Source: Candidatus Eiseniibacteriota bacterium
Lineage (GTDB): Bacteria > Eisenbacteria > RBG-16-71-46
Direction: 5' to 3'
Length of the DNA: 64,000 bases
Assembly: GCA_963725865.1 (NCBI GenBank)
Contig: CAVSAC010000014.1
Coordinates: 389,298-453,297, forward strand
Positions 4,088 through 60,181 of this stretch are shown here, piece by piece. The position numbers and the translations under genes are program-made. Under the pieces are notes generated by a model. It was not told where the DNA came from. It made no database searches and saw only the letters and a list, made by a program, of their open reading frames with translations. Within the stretch, counting starts at the first letter, position 1. Each line of letters begins with the position of its first letter.

Positions 4088-5395
4088 TCATGTCGAGAGT
4101 CTGACACGCCGCGCCGCGATCGAGTCCAGCCACTGTGGGTCCTGGCTCGCCACCATCACCGGCGTCGTGAGCGAATGGCGCAGAATCGCGGCGGCAGCGG
4201 CGGCCCGCCGTGAGCGGTCGAGCCCGGCGGTCGGCTCGTCCAGCAGCAGCAGTCCGGCCGGCGCCGTGAGGGCCCCGACCAGCTGGACCACCCGCTTCTC
4301 GCCGCCCGAGAGCCCCCACACGCGCCGCCCCTCGAGGGCGCCGCAGCCGAGCTCCTCCAGCAGGGCAACGGCTGTATCGACCGCAGCTTGGCGCTTCGCT
4401 CCTCGCTGGACGGCGGCCCACGTCACTTCGGCCAGAACCTGCTCTTCGAAGATCTCGTGTTCCGGGTACTGGGTCGCGAGCAGCGGTGGATCCTCGAGGG
4501 TTCGCCGCCAGTCCACCCGCACCTGAGGCAGCTCGATCGCACCGGCGATCGCGGCGAGCAGGACGCTCTTGCCGGCGCCATTGGGCCCCTCGAGGGCGGT
4601 CACGCCGGCGGCGGCCACCTCGATCGAGAGCGGAGCGGCGACGGGCACCCGCGGACCGTGGCAGGACGGCGGCGGGGCAACCTCGACGACGACGAGCGCG
4701 GGTTGGACACCCGGAGGCCCGGACTCGGCCCGGAAGGCCGGGTGGCTCACCCCATCGAGTTCGCCGATGATGAGTTCGCGATGCGCCGCCGCGCGCTCCT
4801 GTGGGTCCTGGGTCACCCAGACCAGCGCGAGTCCCTCGGCCACTTCCTGACGCAGGACCTCGAGCACCCGACCGCGGGTTGCGGCGTCGAGATGCGCCCC
4901 CGCCTCGTCGGCGATCAACAGCCGCGGCCGCGCCGCGAGCGCCGCAGCGAGGAGCACCAACTGTTGCCGGCCGGCGGAGAGTTCGCGCGGGTCGCGTTCC
5001 AGGTCCGCCGTGAGGTCCAACTGCTCCGACAGTCGCGCGATCTCCCGCGCGACCTCGCCGGGCGCGCGTCCGAGATTGCGCGGCGCCATTGCGAGTTCCG
5101 CGGCGACCGTCGACTGGAGGAGCTGGATCCCCGGGTCCTGCATCACCACCGCGACCGCCGCGCGCGCCGCGGCGGGCGCCCCCGGCTGCAACGGTCGCCC
5201 CTCGAACTCCACGACGCCGCGCTGCGCGGGCCACAGTCCGCCCAGCACCATCGCCAGCGTGGTCTTGCCACCCCCGTTGGGCCCGTGGAGCGCGATCCAC
5301 TCGCCGGCGCCCACCTCTAGAGAGACGCCCCGGACCGCGGGGTCCGGGGCTCCGGGCGGCGCGGCCCACACGTCGCGGGCACTCAGGCCACTCAC
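4088..5395 (-). CDS. Fused tandem ABC ATPase of ECF-transporter type (EcfA-EcfA'/CbiO-like), two nucleotide-binding domains in one polypeptide
   Basis: Two Walker A motifs (GPNGGGKTT, GPNGAGKS), two signature motifs (LSAGRQQ, LSGGEKR) and a Q-loop QYPEHEIF. GTG start overlaps the larC stop (GTGA). Confidence 0.75.
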   Translation of the reverse strand: MSGLSARDVWAAPPGAPDPAVRGVSLEVGAGEWIALHGPNGGGKTTLAMVLGGLWPAQRGVVEFEGRPLQPGAPAAARAAVAVVMQDPGIQLLQSTVAAELAMAPRNLGRAPGEVAREIARLSEQLDLTADLERDPRELSAGRQQLVLLAAALAARPRLLIADEAGAHLDAATRGRVLEVLRQEVAEGLALVWVTQDPQERAAAHRELIIGELDGVSHPAFRAESGPPGVQPALVVVEVAPPPSCHGPRVPVAAPLSIEVAAAGVTALEGPNGAGKSVLLAAIAGAIELPQVRVDWRRTLEDPPLLATQYPEHEIFEEQVLAEVTWAAVQRGAKRQAAVDTAVALLEELGCGALEGRRVWGLSGGEKRVVQLVGALTAPAGLLLLDEPTAGLDRSRRAAAAAAILRHSLTTPVMVASQDPQWLDSIAARRVRLST

Positions 5396-6573
5396 GCGTC
5401 CTGGCCCTCCGAGCGCCAGGCCGCGAGCGCCGCTTCGGCCACCTCGCGCCACGGACGCCCCGCGCGCTCGGCCGCCGCGCGTACCGATTCGAACTCCGGT
5501 ACCGCTCGCTCACTCCCGTCGGGCAGCGTCGCGATCTTCAGCGCCACCGCGCCGAAGGCCGTCGCGACCTCCGCGGCGCGCCGCGGCAGCTCCACGCGCT
5601 CCTCGTGACGCATGCGCACGCCGAGCGTGCCGGTTTCGGTGAGCAACCGGCGGGCGAGTGCCTCGGCCTGGTGTGGCTCGGCGATCACCACCAGCCACAG
5701 ACCGGGGCGGCCCTTCTTCATCACTGTGGGCACCACCATCGCGTCGAGCGCGCCCTCCGCGAGCAGCCGTGGGATCAGCGCGCCCACCACCTGTGGATTC
5801 TCGTCGTCGAGCGAGGTTTCGAGCACCGTGACCGCGCGCCGCTCGAGCCCTGCGTCTCCGGTGTTGCCGATGAGGATGCGCAGCACGTTCGGCTGTTCCG
5901 CCAGCTCGCGCCCGCCGGCACCCAGTCCGACGCGCTCGAGCGTGTACGTGGGCGGTGGGCCCCACGTGTGCACCAGCGTGGCGAGCAGCGCGGCGCCGGT
6001 CGGCGTGACCAGTTCGGCGCGCACGTCGGTGGGCGCGATCGGGATTCCCTGCACCAGCAGCGCGGTCGCCGGTGCCGGCACCGGCATGCGGCCGTGCTCG
6101 CACTCCACGGTGCCGTTGCCGAGCGGCAACGACGAGGCGAACACGCGCTGGACACCGAGCGCCTCCAGGCCGAGCACGGTACCCACCACGTCCACGATGG
6201 CGTCCACGGCGCCGACCTCGTGGAAGTGCACCTGCTCGACGGTCGTGCCGTGCACGGTGGCCTCCGCCTCGGCCAGGCGGCGGAACACCGCGCGGGCCCG
6301 CGCGCGCACCGTCTCCGGCAGGTCGCCGGCGTCGATCATCGCCTCGATGTGCCGCAGATGACGGTGCGGCTGACCGCCCGCGGCATTCACCTCGACCCGC
6401 GTGGCCTCGAGCGCGCCGCGTCGCGCGCGACCCACGGTGACCGTGGCGCCTGCGAGCTTCAGGCGCGCCGGCAGCGCCACGAGCTCCGCGGCCGGCCAGC
6501 CCGCCGCGACCAGGGCCGCGAGGCACATGTCCCCGCTCACCCCGGAGAAGCAGTCGAAGTACGCGATCCGCAT
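5392..6573 (-). CDS. larC: Nickel-pincer nucleotide cofactor nickel-insertion protein LarC (DUF111 family)
   Basis: Hallmark N-terminus MRIAYFDCFSGVSGDM. Full length 393 aa with the expected C-terminal domain. Confidence 0.8.
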   Translation of the reverse strand: MRIAYFDCFSGVSGDMCLAALVAAGWPAAELVALPARLKLAGATVTVGRARRGALEATRVEVNAAGGQPHRHLRHIEAMIDAGDLPETVRARARAVFRRLAEAEATVHGTTVEQVHFHEVGAVDAIVDVVGTVLGLEALGVQRVFASSLPLGNGTVECEHGRMPVPAPATALLVQGIPIAPTDVRAELVTPTGAALLATLVHTWGPPPTYTLERVGLGAGGRELAEQPNVLRILIGNTGDAGLERRAVTVLETSLDDENPQVVGALIPRLLAEGALDAMVVPTVMKKGRPGLWLVVIAEPHQAEALARRLLTETGTLGVRMRHEERVELPRRAAEVATAFGAVALKIATLPDGSERAVPEFESVRAAAERAGRPWREVAEAALAAWRSEGQDA

Positions 6574-45586: not shown

Positions 45587-46933
45587 CTAGCGGGTGTGGG
45601 CCGGCTCGCGGCCGACGGCGCGGGCGATGGCGGCGGGCAGCACGCTGCGATCGTGCTCCGCCAGCTCGTAGAGCACGCGCGTCGACGGCTTGCCGATGGT
45701 CAGCACGTGCCCGAGGTCGATCGGTGTCGCGACCAGCACCAGGTCGCACGGCGTCGCGTCGATGGTCGCCTTGAGCTCGGCCACCTGCTTGTCCCCGTAG
45801 CCCATCGCCGGCAGCACCTGCGTGACGTGCGGGTACTTCTCGAACGTGGCCTTGATCGAGCCCCGCGCGTACGGCCGCGGATCCACGATCTCCGCCGCGC
45901 CCAGCTTGCGGGCGGCGACCAGGCCGGCACCATAGCGCATCTCGCCGTGCGTGAGCGTGGGGCCGTCCTCGATCACCAGCACGCGCTTGCCCTTCACCGC
46001 GCCGGGGTCGCTCACGGTGACCGGGGAGTCGGCGCGCAGCACGATCGCGCGCGGATTGAGCGCGCGGACGCTCCGCTCGACCTGCTCGACGTTGGCGGGC
46101 TCGGCGGTGTCGACCTTGTTCAGGATGACCAGGTCGGCCATCCGCACGTTGATCTCGCCGGGGTAGTAGCGCTGCTCGTGACCGGCGCGGTGCGGATCGG
46201 CGACGACGATGTTCAGATCGGGCTGATAGAACGGCGTGTCGTTGTTGCCGCCGTCCCACAGCACCACGTCGGCCTCGGCCTCGGCGGCGCGCAGGATGCG
46301 CTCGTAGTCGACGCCAGCGAACACCACGTTGCCCATCGCGGTGTGCGGCTCGTACTCCTCGCGCTCCTCGATGGTGCACTTCTGGTCGTCCATGTCCTTC
46401 ACCGACGCGAAGCGCTGCACCGCCTGCGCGGCGAGGTCGCCGTACGGCATCGGATGGCGCACGACCGCCACCTTGAGTCCCATCTCGCGCAGGATCTGCG
46501 TGACGCGCCGCGAGGTCTGGCTCTTGCCGCAGCCGGTCCGCACGGCGCCGACCGCGATGACGGGCCTGGTGCTCTTCAGCATCGTCTGCGCCGGGCTGAG
46601 CAGGACGAACTCGCAACCCGCGGCGTTGGCGCGCGAGGCGGCGTGCATGATGTGGTCGTAGGAGACGTCGGAGTAGGCGAACGTCACCACGTTCGCGCGC
46701 AGGTCCCGGATCAGGTCCTCGAGCTGCTCCTCGGGATGGATCGGGATGCCCTGCGGGTACTGCGGGCCGGCGAGCACGGACGGGTACACGCGCCCGGCGA
46801 TGTCGGGGATCTGATTGGCGGTGAAGGCGACCACCTCGACGCCGCTCTGATGCTTCCACCACACGTTGAAGTTGTGGAAGTCGCGGCCTGCCGCACCCAT
46901 GATGATCACGCGCTGCCGTTTCGGCTCGGTCAT
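45587..46933 (-). CDS. P-loop protein of the cyclic 2,3-diphosphoglycerate-synthetase-like family (function in bacteria unknown)
   Basis: RVIIMGAAGRDFHNFN N-terminus. Walker A GAVRTGCGKSQT. 449 aa. Family assignment from memory, not verified. Confidence 0.45.
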   Translation of the reverse strand: MTEPKRQRVIIMGAAGRDFHNFNVWWKHQSGVEVVAFTANQIPDIAGRVYPSVLAGPQYPQGIPIHPEEQLEDLIRDLRANVVTFAYSDVSYDHIMHAASRANAAGCEFVLLSPAQTMLKSTRPVIAVGAVRTGCGKSQTSRRVTQILREMGLKVAVVRHPMPYGDLAAQAVQRFASVKDMDDQKCTIEEREEYEPHTAMGNVVFAGVDYERILRAAEAEADVVLWDGGNNDTPFYQPDLNIVVADPHRAGHEQRYYPGEINVRMADLVILNKVDTAEPANVEQVERSVRALNPRAIVLRADSPVTVSDPGAVKGKRVLVIEDGPTLTHGEMRYGAGLVAARKLGAAEIVDPRPYARGSIKATFEKYPHVTQVLPAMGYGDKQVAELKATIDATPCDLVLVATPIDLGHVLTIGKPSTRVLYELAEHDRSVLPAAIARAVGREPAHTR

Positions 46934-47911: not shown

Positions 47912-47948
47912 GACGACGCCCCGGCGGAGGGATCCGCCGGGGCGTCGT
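47912..47948 (+). terminator. Hairpin terminator candidate after the redoxin-like gene
   Basis: GACGACGCCCCGGCGG-aggga-tCCGCCGGGGCGTCGT (15-16 bp stem). Confidence 0.45.
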
Positions 47949-48047
47949 GCATTCCTGCGGGCCGACCGCCCCGCGTCACGCCGCGGTGATGCGCAGCCCC
48001 AGCCTGGGGTCGACGGTGAACAGCGAGCCGACCAGTGGCTCCTTCAG

Positions 48048-48404
48048 GTGTACGGCTCCCGAGGGCGTCTTCTCGAACAGCAGGAACACCGCGGCCTGTG
48101 CGGTGGCGAGTGCGATGCCGATGAACGCCTCGAGCGGCACGCTGCACGCGCGACCACGCAGCCAGGCGAACAGCTCGGCGCCGATGAACGTCATGCCGTG
48201 CAACTCGTCGCGGCCGGCGTCGACGTGACCGTCATCCGCAGCGGGCTCGGCCACGTGCACCTCGACACCACGTTTCTCCAAGCCCAGGCCAACGCCGAGA
48301 CCAAGCGCCGGGCGAGCGATCTCGTCGGCGGTCCCGCGCGATCCGTCCGACCGTCACGGTGGAAGCGCGACCCGGCATTGCTCGCCTGGCTCGACCCGCT
48401 GTGA
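48048..48404 (+). pseudogene. Degraded tyrosine-recombinase (integrase) C-terminal remnant
   Basis: ...AVQLVAAGVDVTVIRSGLGHVHLDTTFLQ resembles the integrase box-II region (LLxxGvDlxxIqxLLGHxsixTTqiYtH), but the catalytic Tyr is absent and the upstream region is out of frame. No start or RBS. Confidence 0.3.
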
Positions 48405-48424: not shown

Positions 48425-50632
48425 TTAGTGGAGCACGCCCGTCGAGACGGCGAGGCGGATGGTGCGTGGCGCCTGGGGATGCGTATGCACGTCGGCGATA
48501 CCTTGCGGTGGCTCGCCACGAAGGCGAGACGTGTAGTAGTAGTCCACGTCGCTCACGGCACGATCGAGGAGATTGAACACTTCGAGCGCGACGGTCCAAC
48601 GGCCACGCGCGCAGCAGCCGATCCGAGTGTTCAGAATCGTCGATGCGGTGGAGCGCACCGTGTTGTCCTCGATCAGAGGCCGCGGCCCGAAGTACCGCAG
48701 GCGCAGCTCGGCGAACTCGCCCGAGGGTTGCTGGTACTCGATGCCGACCGATGCAACTCCTTCCACGGCGCCCGGGATGCGATCACCGACCGGATCACTG
48801 TCCGTGAAGCGCGCTCGCGAGTACGCCAGATCGGCGTCCATGTGCACGCGGTCGACCAGTCGACACTCACCCGACAGCTCGATGCCGGTTCGACGGCTCG
48901 GACGGCTCGGCTCGCTCGTGGCGGCGTCCCCTTGGAAGACTTGCTCCGAAGCGATGTCGAGCCCCCAGAGCGATGCGCTGGTCGACCAGCGGGATCCACC
49001 TGTGAGGCGCGCACCCACCTCGGCGCCTTTCGTGCGAATGAGCAATGCGCTGCGTTGGATCGGCGGCCCGCCCTGCACCGGGAAATGTTCGGGTGCCGGT
49101 TGAACTCCCTGCGCGGGGCTGCTGCCGCCGGAACTGAAGCGCGCCCCACGCACGTCGTCCGAATGGAAGCCGTACCCGCCGTTCACGAAAAGGTCGAACC
49201 CGCCCCAGGGCCCGAGGATGAGCGAGGCCTTGGGAGACACGATACCGGTGACGTCCGAGCCCGAGAATGATTGATAGCTGGACGTCACGTTGAAGCGATA
49301 GAGATCCGCCCGGGCCCCGAGGATCGTCCGCAGGAAAGACATCAACTGCGCATCGCTCTGCACGAAAGGCGACATGCTTTCCTCGGCGATCTGGTCTTCG
49401 CGAACCGTGGCGAGCCGACGCCGTGCCGCGGTGTGGAAGATCCCCACGCTCGCGATGTTGTCACTGCGGACGTCCACGCCGATCATCTGCCGCACCTCGC
49501 GATCGCGCGACCCGGTGATGCCCACATGCGAGAGATGAATCCCCGACACCACCCGTTGATCGGCCTGCTCGAACTGGTCCCCGTCGAGCGTGTCGTTCAG
49601 GAAGTAGGTGAAGTCCGAGAACAGGTCCAGCCGGTATGCGACGATGTAGGCGCTCGCCTTGGTGATGGACCCCGGCTCGACGTCATGGAACTCGGTCGAG
49701 AGGCTGTAGCGATACGACTGCCCGCCGTCCGTGGGGTCGATCGCGCCGAATCGGGAGACCTCGCCGGAGGCCACGGCCCGCTCCGGAATCTGGTCCGTCG
49801 AGTTCCACCGACCGTCGTAGCCCATCGCGGTGACGCTCAGGCCAAGCTCTGAGGCGCCGTTGTCATAGCGGATTAGCCCGTTGATCTTCCGGTACTCGTC
49901 CTGGTGCACCCACGGACCATCGTTCCGGATCAGCTCGATCGTGCCCAGCGCACTGCCGGATGCCAGCGGTGGCGACACAGCTACCAACGCCCGACGGTAT
50001 CCTTCCCCTCCCAGCGTGAGCGAGACGATCGGGCTCGGCAGCATGTTCCGATAGGAGATATGGGCCGAGCCGGCGCTCGAGAAGTCCCCGTCCTCGACCG
50101 AGTACGTGCCCTTTCGGTACTGAACCTCGCTCACCAGTTCGGGGATGACGAAGTTCAGATCGGTGTAGCCCTGCCCGTGGGCATGCGTGGGCATGTTCAC
50201 CGGCACACCCTCGATCGTCGTCGCGAAGTCGGTGCCGTGGTCGAGGTTGAAGCCGCGCAGGTAGTACTGGTTCGCCTTGCCCTCGCCGCTGTGCTGGCTG
50301 ATGAGCACGCCGGGGATGCTCTCGAGCACATCCCCGGCTCGGAGCAACGGTCGGAGCGCAAGCTGCTTCGGCGTCACGACACCCTGCGACGCGGCCGACC
50401 GCCGTGCGAGCGAGTCCTCGCACGAACCAAACACGTCGATCGGCGGAAGCGCGTACACACGAGTGCTGTCGGGCCCTGTCTGCTTTGCGCGCGTATCACC
50501 CGGCGCACCAGCCACGCTCCCGGCTCGGGCAGCGGGCGCGCTTGCGAGGAGACAGCTGGTCGAGACCGCCAGCAGGACCGCTATGCCCTGACCACAACCG
50601 ATAGGTACGACACGCCGAGGCCCGGTGGTCAC
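48425..50632 (-). CDS. TonB-dependent outer-membrane receptor
   Basis: Signal peptide, plug domain (DVLESIPGVLISQHSGEGKANQYYLRGFN), then a long beta-barrel with alternating hydrophobic pattern. 735 aa. Confidence 0.8.
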   Translation of the reverse strand: MTTGPRRVVPIGCGQGIAVLLAVSTSCLLASAPAARAGSVAGAPGDTRAKQTGPDSTRVYALPPIDVFGSCEDSLARRSAASQGVVTPKQLALRPLLRAGDVLESIPGVLISQHSGEGKANQYYLRGFNLDHGTDFATTIEGVPVNMPTHAHGQGYTDLNFVIPELVSEVQYRKGTYSVEDGDFSSAGSAHISYRNMLPSPIVSLTLGGEGYRRALVAVSPPLASGSALGTIELIRNDGPWVHQDEYRKINGLIRYDNGASELGLSVTAMGYDGRWNSTDQIPERAVASGEVSRFGAIDPTDGGQSYRYSLSTEFHDVEPGSITKASAYIVAYRLDLFSDFTYFLNDTLDGDQFEQADQRVVSGIHLSHVGITGSRDREVRQMIGVDVRSDNIASVGIFHTAARRRLATVREDQIAEESMSPFVQSDAQLMSFLRTILGARADLYRFNVTSSYQSFSGSDVTGIVSPKASLILGPWGGFDLFVNGGYGFHSDDVRGARFSSGGSSPAQGVQPAPEHFPVQGGPPIQRSALLIRTKGAEVGARLTGGSRWSTSASLWGLDIASEQVFQGDAATSEPSRPSRRTGIELSGECRLVDRVHMDADLAYSRARFTDSDPVGDRIPGAVEGVASVGIEYQQPSGEFAELRLRYFGPRPLIEDNTVRSTASTILNTRIGCCARGRWTVALEVFNLLDRAVSDVDYYYTSRLRGEPPQGIADVHTHPQAPRTIRLAVSTGVLH

Positions 50633-50767
50633 GTGATGAACCCTCTTACGCCCAAGGTCCGAATGGTGGCGCGCAACGCCTGGCCCCCGATCGCGGACGG
50701 TGCGTCGGCGCTCAGGGTGACGAAACGAACCTGCCCAGGAGGCTCCCGAGTAAGCCGCCGGACGCGC

Positions 50768-51664
50768 TCATGGATGGACCGTGTCGGCGGCGTTCTCCTC
50801 CGATCCGAACCCCGGCACTTCGGCACGCGTGCCGTTCAGCTTGTCGTCGACGTACTTCATGCGGACCGAGAGCGAGACGATGGCCACCGTCACGCCGAAC
50901 AGGACCACGATGGTGGCTCCCATCGGCCAGTCCCTGAGGTAGGAGAACACCGCGCCCAGGATGGAGACCACGAACGCGATGGCCCAGGCCCAGTAGAGCT
51001 GGACCCGGCCGTGCCGGCCCAGAAGCTTCGAGCAGACCACGGGGACGATCAGATAGGAGAACACCGCCAGCACGCCCGACACCTTCACCGAACTCGTGAC
51101 GACGAGCCCGAACGACGCGTAGAAGAAGAAGTCCCATTTCTTCACCGACAGTCCCATCGCGCGCGCTTTCTTGGGATTCTCGGAACACAGGATGAGCTTG
51201 CGGCGGTTGAAGAACAGGAACGCACCGACGAGCACGTACAGCGTCGCCATGATCGTGATGTCTTTCCACGTCACCCAGCCGAGCGCCTCTCCGCTCAGGG
51301 TCGCGCTGACGTGCTCCGCTCCGTGAGGAGCGTTCGACAGCAGCAGCAACGTGGCCGCCGTCGCCAGCGCGAAGGAGATCCCGATGAACGCCTCCTGCAG
51401 CACCGAGTGTTCGCGGTCCCACAGGAAGCTGAAGAGTGCGGCGCCCAGCAGCGTGAAGCCGAAGGACCAGAAGTACATGCTGGGGTCGTGCGGCTGCGCC
51501 CCCAGCAGGTACGCAACGCTCTGACCCAGCGCGGCGATCTGCGCCAGCGCGAGGTCCACGAAGATCACCCCCCGGGCCAGCACGTGCTGGCCCAGGGCGG
51601 GGTGGATCAGGACGAGAAGCAGGCACGCCAGCAGCGGCAGTGCCATGACCATGAAGAAGTTCAC
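50768..51664 (-). CDS. ABC-3 family metal (Zn/Mn) transporter permease (ZnuB/MntB-like)
   Basis: 8-9 TM helices. Conserved ABC-3 regions (LLGAALFSFLW..., VLAVFSYLIVPVV). 298 aa. Confidence 0.8.
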   Translation of the reverse strand: MNFFMVMALPLLACLLLVLIHPALGQHVLARGVIFVDLALAQIAALGQSVAYLLGAQPHDPSMYFWSFGFTLLGAALFSFLWDREHSVLQEAFIGISFALATAATLLLLSNAPHGAEHVSATLSGEALGWVTWKDITIMATLYVLVGAFLFFNRRKLILCSENPKKARAMGLSVKKWDFFFYASFGLVVTSSVKVSGVLAVFSYLIVPVVCSKLLGRHGRVQLYWAWAIAFVVSILGAVFSYLRDWPMGATIVVLFGVTVAIVSLSVRMKYVDDKLNGTRAEVPGFGSEENAADTVHP

Positions 51665-51673
51665 TTCTGCCCC

Positions 51674-52591
51674 CTATCTTCCGGATAGCGCCTTGGCCAT
51701 CGACGACACCAGGACGTCGAACTTGGTGAAGACGTCGTTCGTTCCGGGCACGCCGCCCACTTCGGTCGCGACCTCCACGGCGGTCCCGCCGGCCCGCTTG
51801 GCCACCTCGTTGCTGGCGTCCGCGCTGTAGTACGGCTGATACACGATCACCTTGACGCCCGCCTTCTTCATCGCCTCGGCCAGCTCGGTGATGTGTCGCG
51901 GGCTGGGCGGGATGCCGGGCTTGGGCTCGACGGTGCCGAAGAGCTTCAGCCCGAAGCGATCGGCGAAGTAGTCGAAGTTCCGGTGATACGGCACGACCGA
52001 CGCCCCCTTGTACGGCGCCAGCTCCTTCTCCCACTTCGCCAGCGATGCCTCCATCCTTTCGTCGAAGGCCTTGGCGTTCGCGGCGTACTCCGCCGCGTTC
52101 GCAGGGTCCAGCTGAGAGAAGACGTCCGCCAGGTGGTTGGCCACCACCTCGAGGTTCTTCGGATCGGCGTAGTAGTGCGGATTCCCGAGCGGGTGGATGT
52201 CCCCCTCCGCCCGGCTGACCGTGCCCACCGGCTTCTCGAGCACGTCGATCCCTTGTGAGGCGTCCACGAAGCCCTTTGTGCCCGGCTGGATCTTGGGATT
52301 GCGGCTGCCGGGAAGGACCAGCGGCAGCCAACCGCCGTCCAGTTCCAGGCCGGTCGACACGAACACGTTCGCGTTCTGGATCGCCTTCATCAGGCTGGGC
52401 TTCGCCGGAACAAAGTGCGGATCCTCGTACCCCCGGCAGAGGCTCTGGGCCGTCACGTGCCTTCCACCCACGAACTGGGCGACGGAAGCGAGATCGGTCA
52501 ACGACGTGGCGACCTTCAGGTCCGCGAGCGCAGGTGCCGCGGCCAGCAGGCCCAGCACCGTTACAACCGCGCAACGAAGCAGCGACTTCAT
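51674..52591 (-). CDS. Metal ABC transporter substrate-binding protein (ZnuA/TroA family)
   Basis: GGAGGA RBS. Signal peptide MKSLLRCAVVTVLGLLAAAPALA. Metal-binding His residues (DPHFV..., HPLGNPHYY). 305 aa. Confidence 0.8.
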   Translation of the reverse strand: MKSLLRCAVVTVLGLLAAAPALADLKVATSLTDLASVAQFVGGRHVTAQSLCRGYEDPHFVPAKPSLMKAIQNANVFVSTGLELDGGWLPLVLPGSRNPKIQPGTKGFVDASQGIDVLEKPVGTVSRAEGDIHPLGNPHYYADPKNLEVVANHLADVFSQLDPANAAEYAANAKAFDERMEASLAKWEKELAPYKGASVVPYHRNFDYFADRFGLKLFGTVEPKPGIPPSPRHITELAEAMKKAGVKVIVYQPYYSADASNEVAKRAGGTAVEVATEVGGVPGTNDVFTKFDVLVSSMAKALSGR

Positions 52592-52652
52592 GAAGTTCCT
52601 CCGATTCTTGAGTGTCATTGGCAGCACCATCCGTCGTGCGCGGGTCGTCGTC

Positions 52653-53753
52653 TCAGTACGCATGGGCCGGGTGATAACCGATCGTGTAGCTCATCTGGAT
52701 CATGATCCGGTCGTCGCTGGGCTTGATCCCGTTGCCGCCGTCCGCCTGGGCGTGGCTGTACTCGAGTCGGACGAACGAGAACTCCGAAGGCGTCCACGCG
52801 AGGTTGGCCGAGAAGCGGTTCACCTTGCCGGCGATCGGACTGCCGGCGCCGTCGACCAGGAAGTCCGTGAAGCTGTTGCGGGCCTGCTCGGCGCGGATGC
52901 CGGTCCACCAGACCTGTGAAGCGCGATACTGGAACGAGAGGTACCCGCCGTCGCCTTCCCGCGCGTAGTTGCCTTCGGCCGACGAGCCCTTCTGGAGGTA
53001 TTCGCTCTGGAGGATCCATCCGCGCCGGTTCGAGTTCCTCGCAGGGACGTTTCGAAGCGTCACGTCGGCGCCATAGGCCGCATGCCGGGCACCATCAGTT
53101 CCGCGACCCTGCAGGATGGACTGACCGAGCTCCATCGTCGTTGCGTCGTTCACGTCAAACTGGTTCTTGAAGTGCCCCAGGTACGGCACGTTGTCGTGCC
53201 GGGTGGACCCGAAGTCGAGCGGGTGGTCGTCATCGGTGGCGATGGCCTCGTAGACGCCTCCCGTCAGCTCGGAGAACCAGGGCAGTGGCGTGAGCCACGA
53301 GGCTTCCGCACCGGCATCCTTGAACCCTTCCCCGCCGATGGTGTTTTCCATGACGATCGGACCCTGGATGAACGGAAACGCGTGGGTGTGGAGCAGCCCG
53401 TGCTTTCCGAACGTGCCGCGGATCTTCCCGAGCTTCAGCTGGATGCCGGGGATGTTGGTGCTGCGGACCCAGACTTCCTCGGGGTCCACCGTCCCGTCCC
53501 CCACGAAGACGATGTTGCTCACGAAGGTCCAGTACGGATCCACAACGGAGATGAGGCTGATCTCCGCCTCGTCGAAATGCAGCCCGTAGGGTTGGTTGAT
53601 GTTGCGGGCGGCCTGCCCGGAGAAGAGGGCGTTCATCCCCATCGCCGGGTTTGCCAGGTTCGAAAACATCGATGACGTCTGGGCAGTCGCGAGCGCTGGA
53701 ACGCAGGCCAGCACGACGACCAGGCAGGCAAGCATGCGAAGTCTCATGCGCAC
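52653..53753 (-). CDS. Outer-membrane beta-barrel (porin-like) protein, probably metal-regulated
   Basis: Signal peptide MRMRLRMLACLVVVLACVPALATA. Alternating amphipathic strands. C-terminal aromatic (…HPAHAY). 366 aa. Confidence 0.55.
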   Translation of the reverse strand: MRMRLRMLACLVVVLACVPALATAQTSSMFSNLANPAMGMNALFSGQAARNINQPYGLHFDEAEISLISVVDPYWTFVSNIVFVGDGTVDPEEVWVRSTNIPGIQLKLGKIRGTFGKHGLLHTHAFPFIQGPIVMENTIGGEGFKDAGAEASWLTPLPWFSELTGGVYEAIATDDDHPLDFGSTRHDNVPYLGHFKNQFDVNDATTMELGQSILQGRGTDGARHAAYGADVTLRNVPARNSNRRGWILQSEYLQKGSSAEGNYAREGDGGYLSFQYRASQVWWTGIRAEQARNSFTDFLVDGAGSPIAGKVNRFSANLAWTPSEFSFVRLEYSHAQADGGNGIKPSDDRIMIQMSYTIGYHPAHAY

Positions 53754-54256
53754 TGTTCCTCCTGAGAGTAGGAAGGACGAAGCGGTCCCGCTGCGTCCTG
53801 GATTCCGTTCACGGTCATGCGAAGGAAGGCCGGGGAGATCTCGGGCATTGACGCCGAGTTCCCCAGCCTTCTTGAGATAATGTGCTGCTGCTCATAATGC
53901 GTGGGATTCAGCTTGCCGAACCCCACGCGGTACTTGCCGCCCTTGAGCGCGAGGCTGGCCGGCAGGCCGCGGTTCATCTGGAAGAATCCCTCTTCGAGCG
54001 TCATCCCGTCGGCGCCGAGCGAGCCGACGAACGTCCCCCGCGCGTACGGATTCAGCGCGGCGTCGAACACGAACTCGGTCTCGCCGGCGTCGAGCGTCGC
54101 GCGCTTGCTCGCCGGGTCGCCGGCGGCGTCGGTCCAGCGCGCGAGTGGCTGGCCGATCACCGAGATGTCGGGGTTGACCACGCCGGCGCGCGCGGTCGCG
54201 GCGAGCGCCGCGCCCAGCGCCATCGTGGCGATGAGTCTGAACAGTCGTCGAAGCAT
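53744..54256 (-). pseudogene. Truncated paralog of the adjacent outer-membrane beta-barrel gene (only the N-terminal ~130 residues are homologous)
   Basis: Signal peptide MLRRLFRLIATMALGAALAATARA. Region ...GKYRVGFGKLNPTHYEQQH aligns with the downstream protein's ...GKIRGTFGKHGLLHTHAFPF. The reading frame runs 10 nt into the next gene's start. Confidence 0.4.
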
Positions 54257-54366
54257 GGAGCCGCCTCCGTCGGAAACGGATGTCGGACCGCCGGCGTCGC
54301 CCGGTGGGGGACGCGCGGAGTCGTGAACGCGGAGTGGAGACCGCGGCGCGGGCCGCGGCGGAGCGT

Positions 54367-54693
54367 TCAGCCGCGCGGAGGCGCGCGCGGGTCGCCGCAC
54401 ACGCGCGTCGCGGAGACGGGCGCGAGCGCGGCGGGCGCGAACAGCGGGGACGGCGTGAACGGGGCCGGCGGAGTCGCGGTGATCGTGCTCGCCACCACGG
54501 CCGCGCCGTGGAGCGCGGCGCACGCCACGCACGGGTGCGCGGCCGGGCCGTGGCCCTCGCCACAATCGGGATCGGTGAGGTGATGCCACAGGTGCGCGGC
54601 GCCGCCGAGCACCAGCACCGCGATCAGCAGCAGCGCGGACGCGCGACGGGCGGGCCGGCGAGGAGGCGTGGGGTGGAGGGTCTCACGGTCCAT
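54367..54693 (-). CDS. Small membrane-anchored Cys/His-containing protein (DUF2946-like?)
   Basis: TM (ALLLIAVLVLGGAAHLW) then HHLTDPDCGEGHGPAAHPCVACAALHG. The family assignment is a guess based on size, the Cys/His pattern and adjacency to a TonB receptor. Confidence 0.3.
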   Translation of the reverse strand: MDRETLHPTPPRRPARRASALLLIAVLVLGGAAHLWHHLTDPDCGEGHGPAAHPCVACAALHGAAVVASTITATPPAPFTPSPLFAPAALAPVSATRVCGDPRAPPRG

Positions 54694-55155
54694 GGGAGGC
54701 GGGATTCTTCCACGAAGCGACCGGGCGCGGCAAGACCCAAGCGGCACCCAAGCGGCACGGCCGCGACGATGTCCAGACGATGTGTGCCCGGTGGTGCTTC
54801 GCCCCCGATGGGTCGCCGGGTCGTCGGCCGCGCGTGGCTGAAGCCGCGTGCAAGCGCTGCCGATGACCCTCGGAGCGGACCCCCTCCCGTTTGTCGGTGC
54901 CCGACGGGCGCTGATACGATGCGCTCACCCCCCACGGAGGGGACGTGTACCACCGTGGTTCCACACGCGCGGACGCCGCTCGTCGCGGTACTCCGCAGGA
55001 CCTTCGCGCCGTCGCGATGTCGGCGCGCATCGGCTCCTTCGCATCCTCCCCGACCATCCATCCCATCCCGGCCTCGCATCGATCCGGCGCCGCTCCGTGT
55101 CCTGCCGGCGGCGGTTGCGCGCAGTTCGATCGTGCGATGGTCCCGGAGATCTCCC

Positions 55156-56283
55156 ATGTCCGCCCATGATGCGAGCCCCCGCTCGGTGATCGAGCGGGGT
55201 GATCTCGACCGGCTCCTCTCGGCCCTGCGCGAGCGCGGCTACTCGGTCATCGGCCCGGTGCGGCGCGGCGACGCGATCGTCCTCGACACGATCGAGTCCG
55301 CCGCCGACCTGCCCGCGGGCTGGACCGACGAGCAGGAGGCCGGTCACTACCGATTGCGACGGCGCGACGACGACATGCTGTTCGGATACAACGTCGGCCC
55401 GTGGTCGTGGAAGCGCTTCCTGTTCCCGCCCGCCCTGCGTCTGTGGCAGGCGCGGCGCGTCGAGCGCGGTTTCGAGCTGGTGGAGGACGGCGCCCGCGCG
55501 CCGCGCTACGCATTCCTCGGCGTGCGCGCGTGCGAGATCGCGGCGCTCGCGATCCACGACCAGGTGCTCACCGGCGGTCCGTACGTCGATCCCGAGTACC
55601 GCGAGCGCCGCGCCCAGGCGTTCATCGTGGCGGTGCCGTGTGTTCAAGCGGGCGCGACGTGCTTCTGCGCCTCGATGGGCACCGGGCCCGCGGTTCGCGA
55701 GGGCTTCGACCTGGCGCTCGCCGAGGTGGTCGAAGGCGGCCGTCACATGTTCGTGGTCACGGTGGGCTCGGAGCGCGGCGCCGAGGTGATGGAGGACGTG
55801 CCCCACCGGCCGGCGGTCGAGGCCGACGTGGCCGCCGCCGCCCGCGCGGTGGAGGGCGCCGCCCGGATGGGTCGCACGCTCGACACCGAGGGGCTCGCGC
55901 CCCTGCTCGCCAAGCAGCACGAGCATCCGCGCTGGAACAAGGTCGCCGAGCGCTGCCTGACGTGCGGCAACTGCGCACTGTCGTGCCCGACCTGCTTCTG
56001 TCACACGGTCGAGGACCTCGCGGACCTCGGCGGCGAGACCGCCGAGCGCGTGCGCCGCTGGGACTCGTGCTTCTCCCTGGAGTTCTCGTTCATCCACGGC
56101 GGCAGCGTGCGGCCCTCCGCGCGCTCGCGCTATCGCCAGTGGCTGACCCACAAGCTCTCGAGCTGGCACGACCAGTTCGGGTCGTCGGGTTGCGTCGGAT
56201 GCGGTCGGTGCATCACCTGGTGCCCGGCCAAGATCGATATCACCGAAGAGGTCCGCGCGATCCGCGAAACGCAGCGCGCGTGA
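55156..56283 (+). CDS. hydB: [NiFe]-hydrogenase group 3b (sulfhydrogenase-type) beta subunit, 4Fe-4S cluster protein
   Basis: Cys clusters CLTCGNCALSCPTCFC and CVGCGRCITWCP. 375 aa. First gene of hydBGDA. Confidence 0.7.
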   Translation: MSAHDASPRSVIERGDLDRLLSALRERGYSVIGPVRRGDAIVLDTIESAADLPAGWTDEQEAGHYRLRRRDDDMLFGYNVGPWSWKRFLFPPALRLWQARRVERGFELVEDGARAPRYAFLGVRACEIAALAIHDQVLTGGPYVDPEYRERRAQAFIVAVPCVQAGATCFCASMGTGPAVREGFDLALAEVVEGGRHMFVVTVGSERGAEVMEDVPHRPAVEADVAAAARAVEGAARMGRTLDTEGLAPLLAKQHEHPRWNKVAERCLTCGNCALSCPTCFCHTVEDLADLGGETAERVRRWDSCFSLEFSFIHGGSVRPSARSRYRQWLTHKLSSWHDQFGSSGCVGCGRCITWCPAKIDITEEVRAIRETQRA

Positions 56284-56294
56284 GGAGGTCCGCC

Positions 56295-56768
56295 GTGCAG
56301 ACACTGGAACCGATTCTGACCGAGGCTCCGTTCTTCCAGGGCATGAAGCACGAACACCTGGCGCACCTCTCGGGCTGCGCATCGAACGTGCGTTACGAAC
56401 CCGACGAGTTCCCGGGGCGCGCCGGCGATCCGGCCGACCGCTTCTGGGTCGTCCGGCAGGGCCGCGTGGCGCTGGAGATCCACGCCCCCGGGCGCGGGGC
56501 GATCACCATCGGCACCATGGGTGAAGGCGATGTCGTCGGCTTCTCCTGGCTGCTGCCGCCCTATCAGCTGCGTTTCGACATCCACGTGCTCTCCGCGACG
56601 CGCGCGATCATGTTCGACGGGCGCTGCCTGCGCGGAAAGTGCGCCACCGATGCGGAATTCGGATACGAGCTCCTCAGCCGCTTCTCGCGGCTGATGGCGG
56701 AGCGCCTGGAGTCCATGAGCCTGCAGCTCCTGGACGTCTATGGCGACCACTATGCCGACCATGACTGA
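56295..56768 (+). CDS. Stand-alone cyclic-nucleotide-binding (CAP-effector) domain protein inserted in the hydrogenase operon
   Basis: GAGGAGG RBS then GTG. FFQGMKHEHLAHL...GDPADRFWVVRQGRVALEI...GTMGEGDVVGFSWLL matches the cNMP-binding beta-barrel pattern. 157 aa, no DNA-binding HTH. Confidence 0.6.
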   Translation: MQTLEPILTEAPFFQGMKHEHLAHLSGCASNVRYEPDEFPGRAGDPADRFWVVRQGRVALEIHAPGRGAITIGTMGEGDVVGFSWLLPPYQLRFDIHVLSATRAIMFDGRCLRGKCATDAEFGYELLSRFSRLMAERLESMSLQLLDVYGDHYADHD

Positions 56769-57621
56769 ACCGATCGCCCCGGAGACACGTGCCACGGCCG
56801 CGCCGATGCGGCCCGCGCCGTGGCGCATCGTCCGGACCAGCACGGAGACCCGGGACACCTTCACGATCACGCTCGAGCCGGAGGATCCCAAGACGACGTA
56901 CGCGTTCCGGCCCGGGCAGTTCAACATGCTCTACACGTTCGGGGTCGGCGAGGTGCCGATCTCGATGAGCGGCCCGCCCGGCGACGGCCGGCGCGTGATC
57001 CACACCCTGCGCGCCGTCGGCCCGGTGACGCAGACCTTCCACCGCCTCAGGCGCGGGGACGTCGTCGGCCTGCGCGGCCCGTACGGCACCCCGTGGCCGG
57101 TGGACGGCGCGAAGGGCCACGACATCGTGCTGGTCGCCGGCGGCATCGGGCTCGCCCCGCTGCGCCCGGCGATCTACCACGTGCTCGCCCACCGCGCGCA
57201 GTACGGGCGCGTGGTGCTGCTGTTCGGCGCGCGGACGCCCGACGACATCCTGTTCGCGCGCGAGCTCGAGAACTGGCGCGGGCGCTTCGACATCGATGTC
57301 GGCATCACGGTGGACCGCGCGCAGCCCGGCTGGCACGGGCACGTCGGGGTCGTCACCACGCTCCTGCCGCGCGCCCCGCTCGATCCCGCCAACACGGCCG
57401 CGTTCGTGTGCGGCCCCGAGATCATGATGCTGTTCGCGGCGCGCGACCTCGAGAATCGCGGCGTGCCGAACGCGCGCATCTGGCTGTCGATGGAGCGCAA
57501 CATGAAGTGCGCGGTCGCGCTCTGCGGTCACTGCCAGTTCGGTCCCACCTTCATCTGCAAGGACGGCCCGGTGTTCCGGTACGACGCGCTGGCGCCGCTC
57601 CTCGCCGTGCGGGAGCTCTGA
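56761..57621 (+). CDS. hydG: Hydrogenase gamma subunit (FAD/NAD(P)-binding, C-terminal 2Fe-2S)
   Basis: [19 protein letters not shown] (FAD), [11 protein letters not shown] (NAD(P)), C-terminal [20 protein letters not shown]. Start overlaps the upstream stop. Confidence 0.7.
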
Positions 57622-57623
57622 TC

Positions 57624-58421
57624 ATGGCCGCGACGACCCGCAAACCCCGCCTGGCGGTCTGGAAGTTCGCCTCGTGCGACGGCTGTCAGCTCTCGATCCT
57701 CGATTGCGAGGACGAGCTGATGACGCTCGCCGGAGCGGTCCACATCGCCAACTTCGCCGAGGCGTCCCGCGCCATGGAGAAGGGCCCGTACGACCTGTCG
57801 CTGGTCGAGGGCTCGATCACCACGCCCCACGACGCTGAGCGCATCCACGCCGTCCGCCGCGCCTCCAAGGTGCTGGTCACCATCGGCGCCTGCGCCACCA
57901 CGGGCGGCATCCAGGCGCTCCGGAACTTCGCCGACGTGAAGGAGTGGATCCCGATCGTCTACGCCCGCCCGGAGCACATCGAGACGCTCCGCAACTCCAC
58001 CCCCATCGCGAACCACGTGCTCGTGGACTACGAGCTGCAGGGCTGCCCGGTGAACAAGCACCAGCTGCTGGAAGTGGTGCGTGCGTTCCTCGCCGGGCGG
58101 CGGCCGGTGCTTCCCGCATACAGCGTCTGCACGGAGTGCAAGCGCCGCGGTACCCCGTGCGTCGTCGTGAACTCGGGCCTGCCGTGCATGGGCCCGGTGA
58201 CGCGCACGGGCTGCGGTGCGCTGTGCCCGTCCTACGCCCGCGGGTGCTACGGCTGCTTCGGCCCGGTGCGCGGCGCCAATACCGCCGCGCTCGGCGACGT
58301 CCTCCACGGCCTCGGCCTCGACGATCCGGCAGTCGTCCGCGCGTTCCGCGGATTCAACGCCGGCTCCGAGGCGTTCCGCAAAGCGAGTGAATTCCATGAG
58401 CAGCGCCACCACGGCCAGTAA
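57624..58421 (+). CDS. hydD: [NiFe]-hydrogenase small (delta) subunit
   Basis: [10 protein letters not shown]...GACATTGG proximal-cluster Cys ligands, typical of short group-3 small subunits. 266 aa. Confidence 0.75.
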
Positions 58422-59709
58422 GCGCAATCGTTCCGTCGAGGTCGACGTGCTCGCCCGGGTCGAGGGCGAGGGCGGCATCGACGTCCGGATCCACAAGGGC
58501 GAAGTGACCGAGGTGAAGTTCCGCATCTACGAGCCGCCGCGCTTCTTCGAGGCGTTCCTGCGCGGGCGCTCGTACACCGAGGTCCCGGACATCACCGCGC
58601 GCATCTGCGGGATCTGTCCGGTCGCCTACCAGATGAGCGCGGTGCACGCCATCGAGCGCGCGTTCGGGGTCCAGGTCACGGGACCGCTGCGCGCGCTGCG
58701 GCGGTTGCTGTACTGCGGCGAGTGGATCGAGAGCCACGCGCTCCACATCTACCTGCTCCACGCTCCGGACTTCCTCGGGTACGAGAGCGGGATCCACATG
58801 GCGAAGGACCACGGCGACGCCGTGACCCGCGGCCTGCGGCTCAAGAAGACCGGCAACGCCCTCGTGACCGTGATCGGCGGCCGCGAGATCCATCCGCTCA
58901 ACGTGCGGGTGGGCGGCTTCTACCGCGCGCCCTCGAAGCGGGAGCTGCGCGGGCTGCTCGACGAGCTGCGCTGGTCCCGCGAGGCGGCGATCGAGACGGT
59001 GCGGCTGGTGGCCGGCTTCACGTTCCCCGATTTCCAGCGGGACTACGCGTTCGTGGCGCTCCGGCATCCGGACGAGTACCCGTTCAACGAGGGACGCGTG
59101 GTCTCCAGCCTGGGACTCGACATCGACGTCAGCGACTACGAACGCCACTTCACCGAGGAGCATGTCCAGCGCTCGAACGCGCTCCATTCGACCATGCGCG
59201 AGCACGGTCCGTATCACGTGGGCCCGCTCGCGCGCTACAGCCTCAACTTCGACCGGCTCTCGCCGATCGCCCAGGCGTGCGCGCGGGACGCGGGACTGGG
59301 GACGGAGTGTCGCAATCCGTTCCAGAGCATCGTCGTTCGCGCGGTCGAGACGGTGCAGGTCGTGGACGAGGCGGTGCGCACGATCGAGGCGTACGAGGAG
59401 CCCGACTCCCCGTCCGTGCAGGTGGAGCCGAAGGAGGGCGTGGGATGGGGCGCGAGCGAGGCGCCGCGGGGGATGCTCTACCACCGCTACCGTCTCGACG
59501 CGGCCGGGCTGGTGCGGGAGGCCAAGATCGTGCCGCCGACCTCGCAGAACCTGCGCACCATCGAAGCGGACCTCATGCGCTACGTCGCCAGTCATCTGGA
59601 ACTCGACGACGCGGCGCTCACCTGGGGATGCGAGCAGACGGTGCGCAACTACGACCCCTGCATCTCGTGCGCGACCCATTTCCTGCGCGTGCACATCGTG
59701 CGGGAGTGA
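58396..59709 (+). CDS. hydA: [NiFe]-hydrogenase large (alpha) subunit
   Basis: N-terminal [10 protein letters not shown] (L1 CxxC). C-terminal DPCISCATH (L2 DPCxxCxxH). 437 aa. Confidence 0.8.
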
Positions 59710-59722
59710 CACGGAGGCCCCG

Positions 59723-60181
59723 ATGCTGCGGGTGATCGGCGTCGGCAACGAGTTGCGCGGCGACGACGCGGCCGGGCCCCGGGTGATCGCGCACCTGCGG
59801 GCCCGCGCCGTGCCGGGACTCGCGGCCGTGCAGTGTCCGGCCGAGCCCGCGGCGCTGATGGAGGCGTGGCGGGAGGCCGACCACGTCGTCGTGGTGGACG
59901 CGATGCAGAGCGGGCGGCCGCCGGGCGCGGTCACGCGGTTCGACGCCACGCACACGCCGCTGCCGGTGTCCGGCTTCCGCTCCTCGACCCACGGCCTCGG
60001 CATCGCGGACGCGGTCGAGCTGGGACGCGCGCTCGGCCGCCTGCCCGCGCTGCTGGAGGTGATCGGCATCGAGGGCGCGGGCTGGGAACAGGGCGCGCCG
60101 CTGGACCCCGCCGTGGCGCGGGCGGTGAAGCAGGTGGTGGAGGCGCTCGTCCGCGACGCGGCCGGCGGCGGCGCGGGCTGA
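59723..60181 (+). CDS. Hydrogenase maturation endopeptidase (HycI/HoxW-like)
   Basis: MLRVIGVGNELRGDDAAGPRV...VVVDAM...THGLG motifs. 152 aa. Confidence 0.7.
   Translation: MLRVIGVGNELRGDDAAGPRVIAHLRARAVPGLAAVQCPAEPAALMEAWREADHVVVVDAMQSGRPPGAVTRFDATHTPLPVSGFRSSTHGLGIADAVELGRALGRLPALLEVIGIEGAGWEQGAPLDPAVARAVKQVVEALVRDAAGGGAG

Follow-up and report, generated by a model that had tools for sequence, protein, structure and literature searches.

The window analysed here is a stretch of 64,000 nucleotides of contig CAVSAC010000014.1 from a Candidatus Eiseniibacteriota bacterium, and its subject is a metal-uptake locus at 48425-54693 in which a short porin-gene fragment precedes genes for an intact porin, a periplasmic binding protein, an ABC-3 permease and a TonB-dependent receptor. 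All six open reading frames (ORFs) of the locus are co-directional on the minus strand, and the six genes which a first-pass annotation of the same DNA had placed there were confirmed by the ORF list and by Pfam and NCBIfam identities. The features referred to below run from the upstream end of the locus to its downstream border; type A designates the operon formerly resident at this site and type B the operon carried by a putative island.

54367..54693, minus strand: small membrane protein of 108 aa with an N-terminal transmembrane helix, read as the first gene of the resident operon
53744..54256, minus strand: ORF of 170 codons (the fragment) with a signal peptide, read as a type A porin stump followed by an island-end tail
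53897..54256, minus strand: 5' remnant of the resident type A porin gene, codons 1-120, comprising the signal peptide and first strands
53809..53899, minus strand: conserved terminal sequence of the island, about 90 nt, AT-rich and with a hairpin, located with an nhmmer profile
53748..53808, minus strand: leader of the type B porin gene; contains a small hairpin and, 7 nt before the ATG at 53747, a Shine-Dalgarno sequence (AGGAGG)
52653..53747, minus strand: type B outer-membrane porin, 364 aa, intact (Pfam BBP2)
51674..52663, minus strand: ZnuA/TroA-type periplasmic binding protein (Pfam ZnuA, E 2.6e-48)
50768..51664, minus strand: ABC-3 (ZnuB-type) permease, 298 aa (Pfam ABC-3, E 5e-28, 98.7 bits)
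48425..50632, minus strand: TonB-dependent receptor, 735 aa, last cargo gene of the putative island (plug domain E 1.6e-14; TonB-siderophore barrel matches)
48198..48404, plus strand: last 69 codons of a 5'-truncated gene for a RitC-type tyrosine recombinase, found by tblastn
48003..48197, minus strand: internal relic of the resident type A ABC-3 permease, residues ~72-136, in a frame that ends at a stop at 47976
47913..47948, no strand assigned: perfect 16-bp hairpin (inverted repeat, 100% complementary) between the permease relic and a convergent AhpC-like gene

Comparisons were made with database genome, metagenome and plasmid loci (L numbers) and with protein-database entries (P numbers). 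The first-pass annotation had described the 170-codon fragment as a decayed duplicate of the intact barrel, with a signal peptide, a frame running into the start of the barrel gene and some 130 residues that align with it. The signal peptide is present and the frame does reach the barrel gene, stop and start overlapping as ATGA at 53744-53747; the alignment proved to be far shorter, as BLASTP gives one 68-residue segment of 31% identity (E 0.004). Up to a break, the fragment is 59-74% identical in amino acids and 75-88% in nucleotides to full-length type A porins of Eisenbacteria-like genomes, with 66-72% amino acid identity to the N-termini of the full-length porins of about 370 aa in L005-L084, and homology to the type A porins ends at His120. 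A database search returned relatives of two kinds: full-length porins that continue past GFGKLNPxH with PHxxPFAERF, and ORFs of about 170 aa that break at the same His and then share a common, unrelated tail. Because its identity to the type A porins is so much higher than that to the neighbouring barrel, the fragment is, on these alignments, codons 1-120 of the type A porin gene that was resident here, and fragment and barrel are by the same measure distant members of one family, not copies.

Tandem duplication of the island's own barrel, with later truncation of the upstream copy, would place two members of one porin family head to tail with an ATGA overlap, as they are found. However, the resemblance of the fragment to its neighbour is confined to the 68 residues given above, and its better match is to another subfamily, whose members occupy that place in the operon in about 80 genomes; a relic of a type A permease to match it lies at the other end of the island, and in L096, where the stump is of type B, that stump is nearest to the barrel of L094 (89% in nucleotides) and not to the barrel behind it. 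We consider such a duplication very improbable; of the original description, the truncated porin gene stands and the copy of the adjacent barrel does not.

Type A operons were surveyed by a scan of species-representative genomes which gave 80 loci, every one with a full-length type A porin and 70 of them extending through the permease. Most are from Candidatus Eisenbacteria metagenome-assembled genomes, the other hosts being Latescibacteria, Zixibacteria, Elusimicrobia, Fibrobacterota, Gemmatimonadota and Calditrichaeota. The order in the 70 loci that reach the permease is porin, ZnuA-like protein and ABC-3 permease, often with a small His/Cys ORF upstream. The binding protein and permease of the window are 35-45% identical to their type A counterparts, and the intact barrel 22-30%; going by these values, the intact barrel and the genes behind it are a paralogous operon, here called type B. 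More than 500 homologues of the type B porin were found, with identities of 76-100% among the best 120 listed, and a metagenome scan with type B gave 80 further loci. Type B trios occur in many different neighbourhoods and are usually directly preceded by a small His/Cys ORF of their own; a receptor behind the permease was seen only in L095 (73% identity), with a 40-codon receptor relic in L085. The ratio of non-synonymous to synonymous divergence (dN/dS) of the cargo genes is 0.07-0.22, which indicates purifying selection.

The small protein at the head of the locus contains HLWHHLTDPDC, C-x-x-C-x-x-LH and a C-terminal RAPP which is invariant in the family alignment. More than 30 loci have a homologous ORF ahead of the porin gene, be it of type A or type B, and an alignment of these ORFs gives the consensus motifs HxxHH..D..C and C..C..LH together with a transmembrane helix. 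Profile scans matched no Pfam or NCBIfam family to them, and as judged from the alignment the small His/Cys proteins are an unnamed family at the head of the operon.

The downstream border of the locus holds the remains of a second type A gene. Residues 29-98 of a minus-strand ORF at 47976-48281 match residues ~72-136 of the type A permease, and in more than 50 Eisenbacteria-like loci the type A permease is 65-82% identical in amino acids to this relic (48003-48197), whereas the identity of the relic to type B permeases is only 47-51%. The resident operon therefore survives as three pieces, namely its first gene, the 120-codon porin stump and a permease stump of about 65 codons, and the 5.7-kb island, made up of the type B genes and the TonB receptor, lies between the two stumps. 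The rearrangement of the locus that had been suspected in the first-pass annotation is borne out.

Beside the permease relic, on the plus strand, is the recombinase relic at 48198-48404, which in tblastn is up to 70% identical (E 1e-20) to annotated recombinases on 166 plasmid records; all three of the plasmid matches examined (L172, L175 and L176) are the third gene of an overlapping recombinase trio. At the edge of the cargo the stop codon of the receptor lies 20 nt from that of the RitC relic. A RitC relic of about 200 nt recurs in two other loci: in L173 it borders unrelated cargo, and in L174 it borders the end of a type B permease, which is inverted there, with the relic of a type A permease next to it, the three-part scar seen in the window being repeated there. 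The relics in these loci and in the window span 66-75 codons next to different cargo (L173 5383-5583, L174 6562-6786, window 48198-48404), and further RitC relics of 66-75 aa occur in the protein database (P0161-P0166). The receptor itself ends in ...STGVLH (48425-48445), where an aromatic residue is usual; the final few codons were perhaps changed at the edge of the cargo.

L177, of type A, and L091, of type B, share a topoisomerase VI/type II secretion system (TopoVI/T2SS) neighbourhood with flanks 82% identical in nucleotides, and one operon type has therefore been swapped in place for the other at least once elsewhere. L174 belongs to the same chromosomal site, which is thereby seen in three states: a type B trio in L091, an inverted type B trio with relics of a recombinase and a type A permease in L174, and a type A trio in L177.

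At the upstream border, the frame of the fragment beyond the stump is open by chance through the island end, to its stop at 53744. The 90-nt end is composed of AT-rich CATTATGAGCAGCAGCACATTATC, an imperfect hairpin of about 18 bp (GGGGAACTCGG...CCGAG..TCCCC) and then CCTTCCTTCGCAT / CCTTCCTTC. Its nhmmer profile is found once in the window, at eight porin-gene junctions and, in addition, in L138; the hairpin is kept in all eight junctions, four of its pairs showing compensatory changes. The type B leader that follows is common to loci which have no fragment, L092 and L093, and its last ~35 nt are present in L085. A scan of 47.5-55.5 kb found no Rfam family for the end or the tail. The 150-nt tail had also been considered as a riboswitch and was dropped, given an unfavourable covariation term for the consensus fold, the reading of its first 90 nt as a mobile-element end and the variable cargo.

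The same His codon, which is the first His of an invariant HxHxxPF motif, is cut in eight independent lineages: the window, L001, L102, L112, L178, L179 and L180 with type A stumps, and, with a stump of type B, L096. Behind the 90-nt end the cargo is of at least three kinds: five lineages have the type B operon there, L178 a secreted protein with a coiled coil, L179 something else, and L180 a protein whose N-terminus was read, without a family search, as that of a CarboxypepD_reg-type TonB receptor. Since the same end and the same His codon are combined in eight lineages with differing cargo, insertion appears to be site-specific, and the junction bears the mark of a mobile-element end that has been attached to a single target in a site-specific manner. 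In the tree, the stumps are interspersed with the full-length type A genes, and lineage-specific codons extend up to the cut (NAMH in L001 vs NPMH in L010; NSQH in L102 vs NPQH in L012).

It could instead be proposed that a single illegitimate recombination took place in one ancestor and that related bacteria then acquired the arrangement through transformation and homologous exchange in its flanks, without a site-specific recombinase. Stumps and cargo do show similar synonymous divergence between loci, the island is host-like in its G+C content at third codon positions (GC3), and a 38-nt block before the cut, highly conserved in type A genes, could host crossovers. However, one of the stumps with this junction is of type B and has diverged too far to allow homologous exchange, the 90-nt end leads into at least three unrelated cargoes, lineage-specific codons persist to the cut, and a tyrosine-recombinase relic occurs at the other border in two contexts. 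We regard a single event as unlikely.

The 170-codon ORF might also have been kept for a function of its own, either as a small secreted protein or as an upstream ORF translationally coupled to the porin. No frameshifts interrupt its 120 porin codons in about ten lineages, the signal peptide and the stop/start overlap are kept, and in most pairs the dN/dS of the stumps (0.31-0.5, in a full range of 0.31-0.77) resembles that of intact type A N-termini, for which the median is 0.31. Against this, the database lists only called ORFs, so that broken stumps are under-sampled, and shorter or frameshifted stumps do exist (P0014, P0019, P0036 and P0037); the tail part is not conserved as a protein, with an early stop in L112 as well as indels, L085, L092 and L093 have no stump, and five or six strands cannot close a barrel. 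A retained function of this kind is, in our estimation, improbable.

The explanation we consider probable is that a mobile island overwrote the resident type A operon after site-specific insertion, and that the absence of an ATPase gene, discussed below, is normal. The host, probably a Gram-negative, Candidatus Eisenbacteria-like bacterium of 71% G+C, would first have held a four-gene type A metal-uptake operon encoding a small His/Cys membrane protein, a porin, a ZnuA-like protein and a ZnuB-like ABC-3 permease. The island would then have entered the porin gene at the first His of HxHxxPF, bringing the type B porin, binding protein and permease together with the TonB receptor, and with a tyrosine recombinase trio at its other end; as it was co-oriented with the operon, its cargo could be read from the resident promoter. 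One deletion, from inside ritC to inside the resident permease gene, would have removed ritA, ritB and most of ritC along with the 3' part of the resident porin gene, by then redundant, the resident ZnuA gene and the first ~70 permease codons, and a further loss would have taken the 3' half of the resident permease gene.

This explanation should be considered with some caution, as a number of observations weigh against it. The synonymous divergence (dS) of stumps and cargo is alike between loci, at 0.4-0.8, and some of the eight junctions may therefore be inherited and not independent insertions. The dN/dS of the stumps exceeds that of the cargo but is not clearly above that of intact genes, which leaves room for a retained stump function. 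There is no compositional sign of foreign origin; the G+C content of the island is 0.64-0.66 vs 0.70-0.79 in the flanks, and the dip sits at codon positions 1 and 2 whereas GC3 is host-like (0.81-0.91 vs 0.86-0.96), so that the dip would reflect amino-acid content and the compositional argument was dropped. At the downstream border the RitC relic is without the catalytic Tyr, the sequence just past its stop shares nothing with the ends of RIT elements, and the starting points of the three RitC relics all fall within ~30 nt, which random deletion does not explain and which suggests a defined end of a non-autonomous element inside ritC. An intact island, with trio, cargo and 90-nt end, was not recovered, a homology search with the recombinase relic giving only 10 short fragments. 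The second junction is deleted in the window, a search for direct or inverted repeats flanking the island gave only chance-level matches, and flanking repeats and the acting recombinase are both unproven.

The lack of an ABC ATPase gene in or beside the locus, also pointed out in the first-pass annotation, was upheld. Pfam finds no ABC_tran within 10 kb of the locus in the window, where all such genes are distant: a fused double ATPase at 4088-5452 and an exporter at ~36.5-38.8 kb. The former, on the minus strand and 43 kb away, is a two-domain protein of 454 aa with two Walker A motifs; its size is unlike that of ZnuC, and the window encodes no other soluble ABC ATPase. In a survey of the 70 type A loci with a permease, 58 of which have at least 1.5 kb of sequence downstream, and of 44 type B loci, no ABC ATPase was found downstream of the permease in any of the 58 or of the 44, and none is adjacent in the two types together (0/114). 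Six type A loci have an unrelated-looking ABC ATPase 4-8 kb upstream, and the Pfam gene lists of L085-L091 contain no ABC ATPase. Neither was a conserved gene family, as a possible stand-in for the ATPase, detected after the type A permease in 49 loci, and nothing was found in the literature on ATPase-less znuA/znuB operons. With 0 of 114 loci having an adjacent ATPase the absence is a rule of the family and not decay, and from this survey it is a fixed trait of the operon family; the view of it as a local peculiarity or loss was not sustained.

A transporter left defective or decaying after its ATPase gene was lost in the rearrangement would be in keeping with the absence of any such gene within 10 kb of the locus. 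Yet the ATPase-less layout is universal in 114 loci from several phyla, all of the genes are intact and under the purifying selection described above, and nothing is conserved after the permease in the 49 loci, all of which makes this reading scarcely credible. The permease aligns over its full length with E. coli ZnuB (9oko), with NPKKARAMG opposite SPDLAFVDG of ZnuB, a segment which we take to be the ATPase-docking loop. By analogy with known transporters, the permease probably borrows an ATPase encoded elsewhere in the genome. There is a small chance that the module is instead a complete, ATPase-free importer, driven by the membrane potential or by cytoplasmic metal capture, which is spread on islands by homing to the porin gene; if true, this would be a new mechanistic class derived from ABC importers, with islands swapping versions of the operon.

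As to function, the best solved relatives of the binding protein are zinc-binding proteins, namely the chains 7lm7 and 3cx3 and the ZnuA proteins of Synechocystis and E. coli. Three His residues of the binding protein fall at positions which we take to be the zinc ligands of 3cx3 and 7lm7, and at the fourth ligand position, where those proteins have Glu, it has Gln. The true start of the protein is probably the Met at 52591, ahead of a signal peptide. The porin matches Pfam BBP2 at 27.7 bits, against a cut-off of 26.2, and its AlphaFold model (predicted local distance difference test, pLDDT, 73.7; predicted template modelling score, pTM, 0.68) is a barrel of 16-18 strands whose top Foldseek matches are VhChiP, OmpT, OmpC, PorB and OprP, all with probability 1.0 and a template modelling score of ~0.5; profile, closed barrel in the model and signal peptide agree with those of a diffusion porin. 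Its HxHxxPF motif, at residues 120-126, is invariant in both porin types, including His 120 and 122, and the island cuts precisely at the first of these; both types also have near-invariant His residues in a C-terminal GYHPAHAY (residues 357-364). HxHxxPF and the C-terminal His may together form a metal-selective channel site. The best reading of these likenesses is that the operon would serve zinc uptake across both membranes, with zinc as the presumptive metal.

With respect to the control by Zur or Fur suggested in the first-pass annotation, a promoter scan and k-mer footprinting gave nothing usable as a Zur/Fur box upstream of the small gene and the fragment, and neither a sigma-70-like site nor a conserved AT-rich palindrome was found upstream of either, in a phylum whose promoter rules are unknown. 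A tandem direct repeat, GTGCCGCTTGG GTGCCGCTTGG, lies directly upstream of the small-protein gene (~54745-54770, minus strand) and may be bound by a regulator. The hairpin at 47913-47948, at the opposite end, is probably a bidirectional terminator and marks the end of the scarred locus; 1.5 kb past this end is a large minus-strand ORF (45590-46900) that weakly matches a CobW/HypB/UreG GTPase domain and might encode a GTPase of the metallochaperone type. On the plus strand at 55180-60178, diverging from the uptake genes, is an [NiFe]-hydrogenase cluster read as group-3-like from its subunit set, which comprises a Fer4_22 subunit, a cyclic-nucleotide-binding protein, an NAD-binding/Fe-S protein, small and large subunits and a HycI protease. 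Synteny with related loci was sought for the hydrogenase and arginine-gene flanks and none was found; as the adjacency of the hydrogenase is not conserved, a nickel link is unlikely.

The operon described here appears to be an uncharacterised system spanning the cell envelope, with at least 114 loci among the Eisenbacteria, Latescibacteria, Zixibacteria, Fibrobacterota, Elusimicrobia and Gemmatimonadota, and its lack of an ATPase gene raises the testable question of how ABC-3 permeases are energised in uncultured phyla. The island family with the 90-nt end would home to one porin codon and often bring a replacement for the operon it interrupts, thus offering a natural example of like-for-like operon displacement, and the 90-nt end could serve as a sequence tag for metagenome searches. 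More generally, a gene stump beside an intact paralogue need not mean duplication.

Amongst characterised transporters the operon bears most comparison with ZnuABC and other cluster A-I systems: its binding protein has the ZnuA fold and a His triad that aligns with theirs, and its ABC-3 permease is of the ZnuB type. It differs in having no ZnuC gene in the operon, in having the porin and the small His/Cys protein as fixed partners, and in its low identity to characterised systems, all NCBIfam scores being far below the cut-offs. The nearest precedent for the missing ATPase is in Staphylococcus aureus, where the HtsABC, SirABC and IsdEF operons are without an ATPase and use FhuC (PMC10147376); it is because of this precedent that a partner encoded elsewhere seems most likely. 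These too are binding-protein-dependent metal importers whose ATPase is encoded elsewhere, but they have FecCD-type permeases, transport iron chelates in a Gram-positive host, and their shared ATPase is experimentally known.

With regard to the island, RIT elements are known mainly from alpha- and beta-proteobacteria and have not been demonstrated to move (Van Houdt et al., 2012; PMC3414803). The relic of the window resembles them in being up to 70% identical to the C-terminus of RitC, and motifs resembling CGCATTAT are common to the island junction and the ends of RIT elements. The ritA-ritB-ritC trio is nevertheless absent at the locus, which holds only 69 codons of a ritC homologue and hence a relic, not an element, and no counterpart of the RIT-type terminal inverted repeats was found in the window at 47.8-54.4 kb. 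The RIT elements of L172, L175 and L176 are compact, with inverted repeats of 28-30 nt and no cargo between ritC and the right repeat. In the window, by contrast, ritC is followed by 5.5 kb of cargo, and the island terminates at its far end in a different sequence, of 90 nt, with no inverted repeat found. On the plasmids of L172 (5317-5336) and L175 (~960-980) the RIT lies 6 nt from the palindrome TTATGCGCAGCTGCGCATAA, in opposite orientations. This palindrome might serve as a target for RIT insertion, and the first part of the island end looks similar to it; the likeness of the junction to it, taken alone, is suggestive but near chance level and was set aside as evidence.

A parallel in overall design may be drawn with the GInt islands (ginABCD), which carry three integrases at one end, cargo beginning from the stop codon and an AT-rich far end, and which target specific sites in the 5' portion of genes (Bardaji et al., 2017; PMC5385486). 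Both have site-specific 5' insertion, a short AT-rich far end and variable cargo, with such an end and site-specific insertion being found here in eight lineages and with at least three cargo types. The cargo here begins 20 nt after the stop codon of the truncated ritC, which would fit the GInt arrangement of cargo at or next to a recombinase stop codon, although the trio itself has been deleted. Imperfect direct repeats of 10-11 nt at both junctions and circular excision would also be expected of a GInt-type island. The relic differs in matching RitC and not the gin operon, with no ginD-like gene seen, and in the almost complete deletion of the recombinase genes. The target in the present case is a porin gene, and in most of the recovered examples the cargo is a paralogue of the very operon that was hit.

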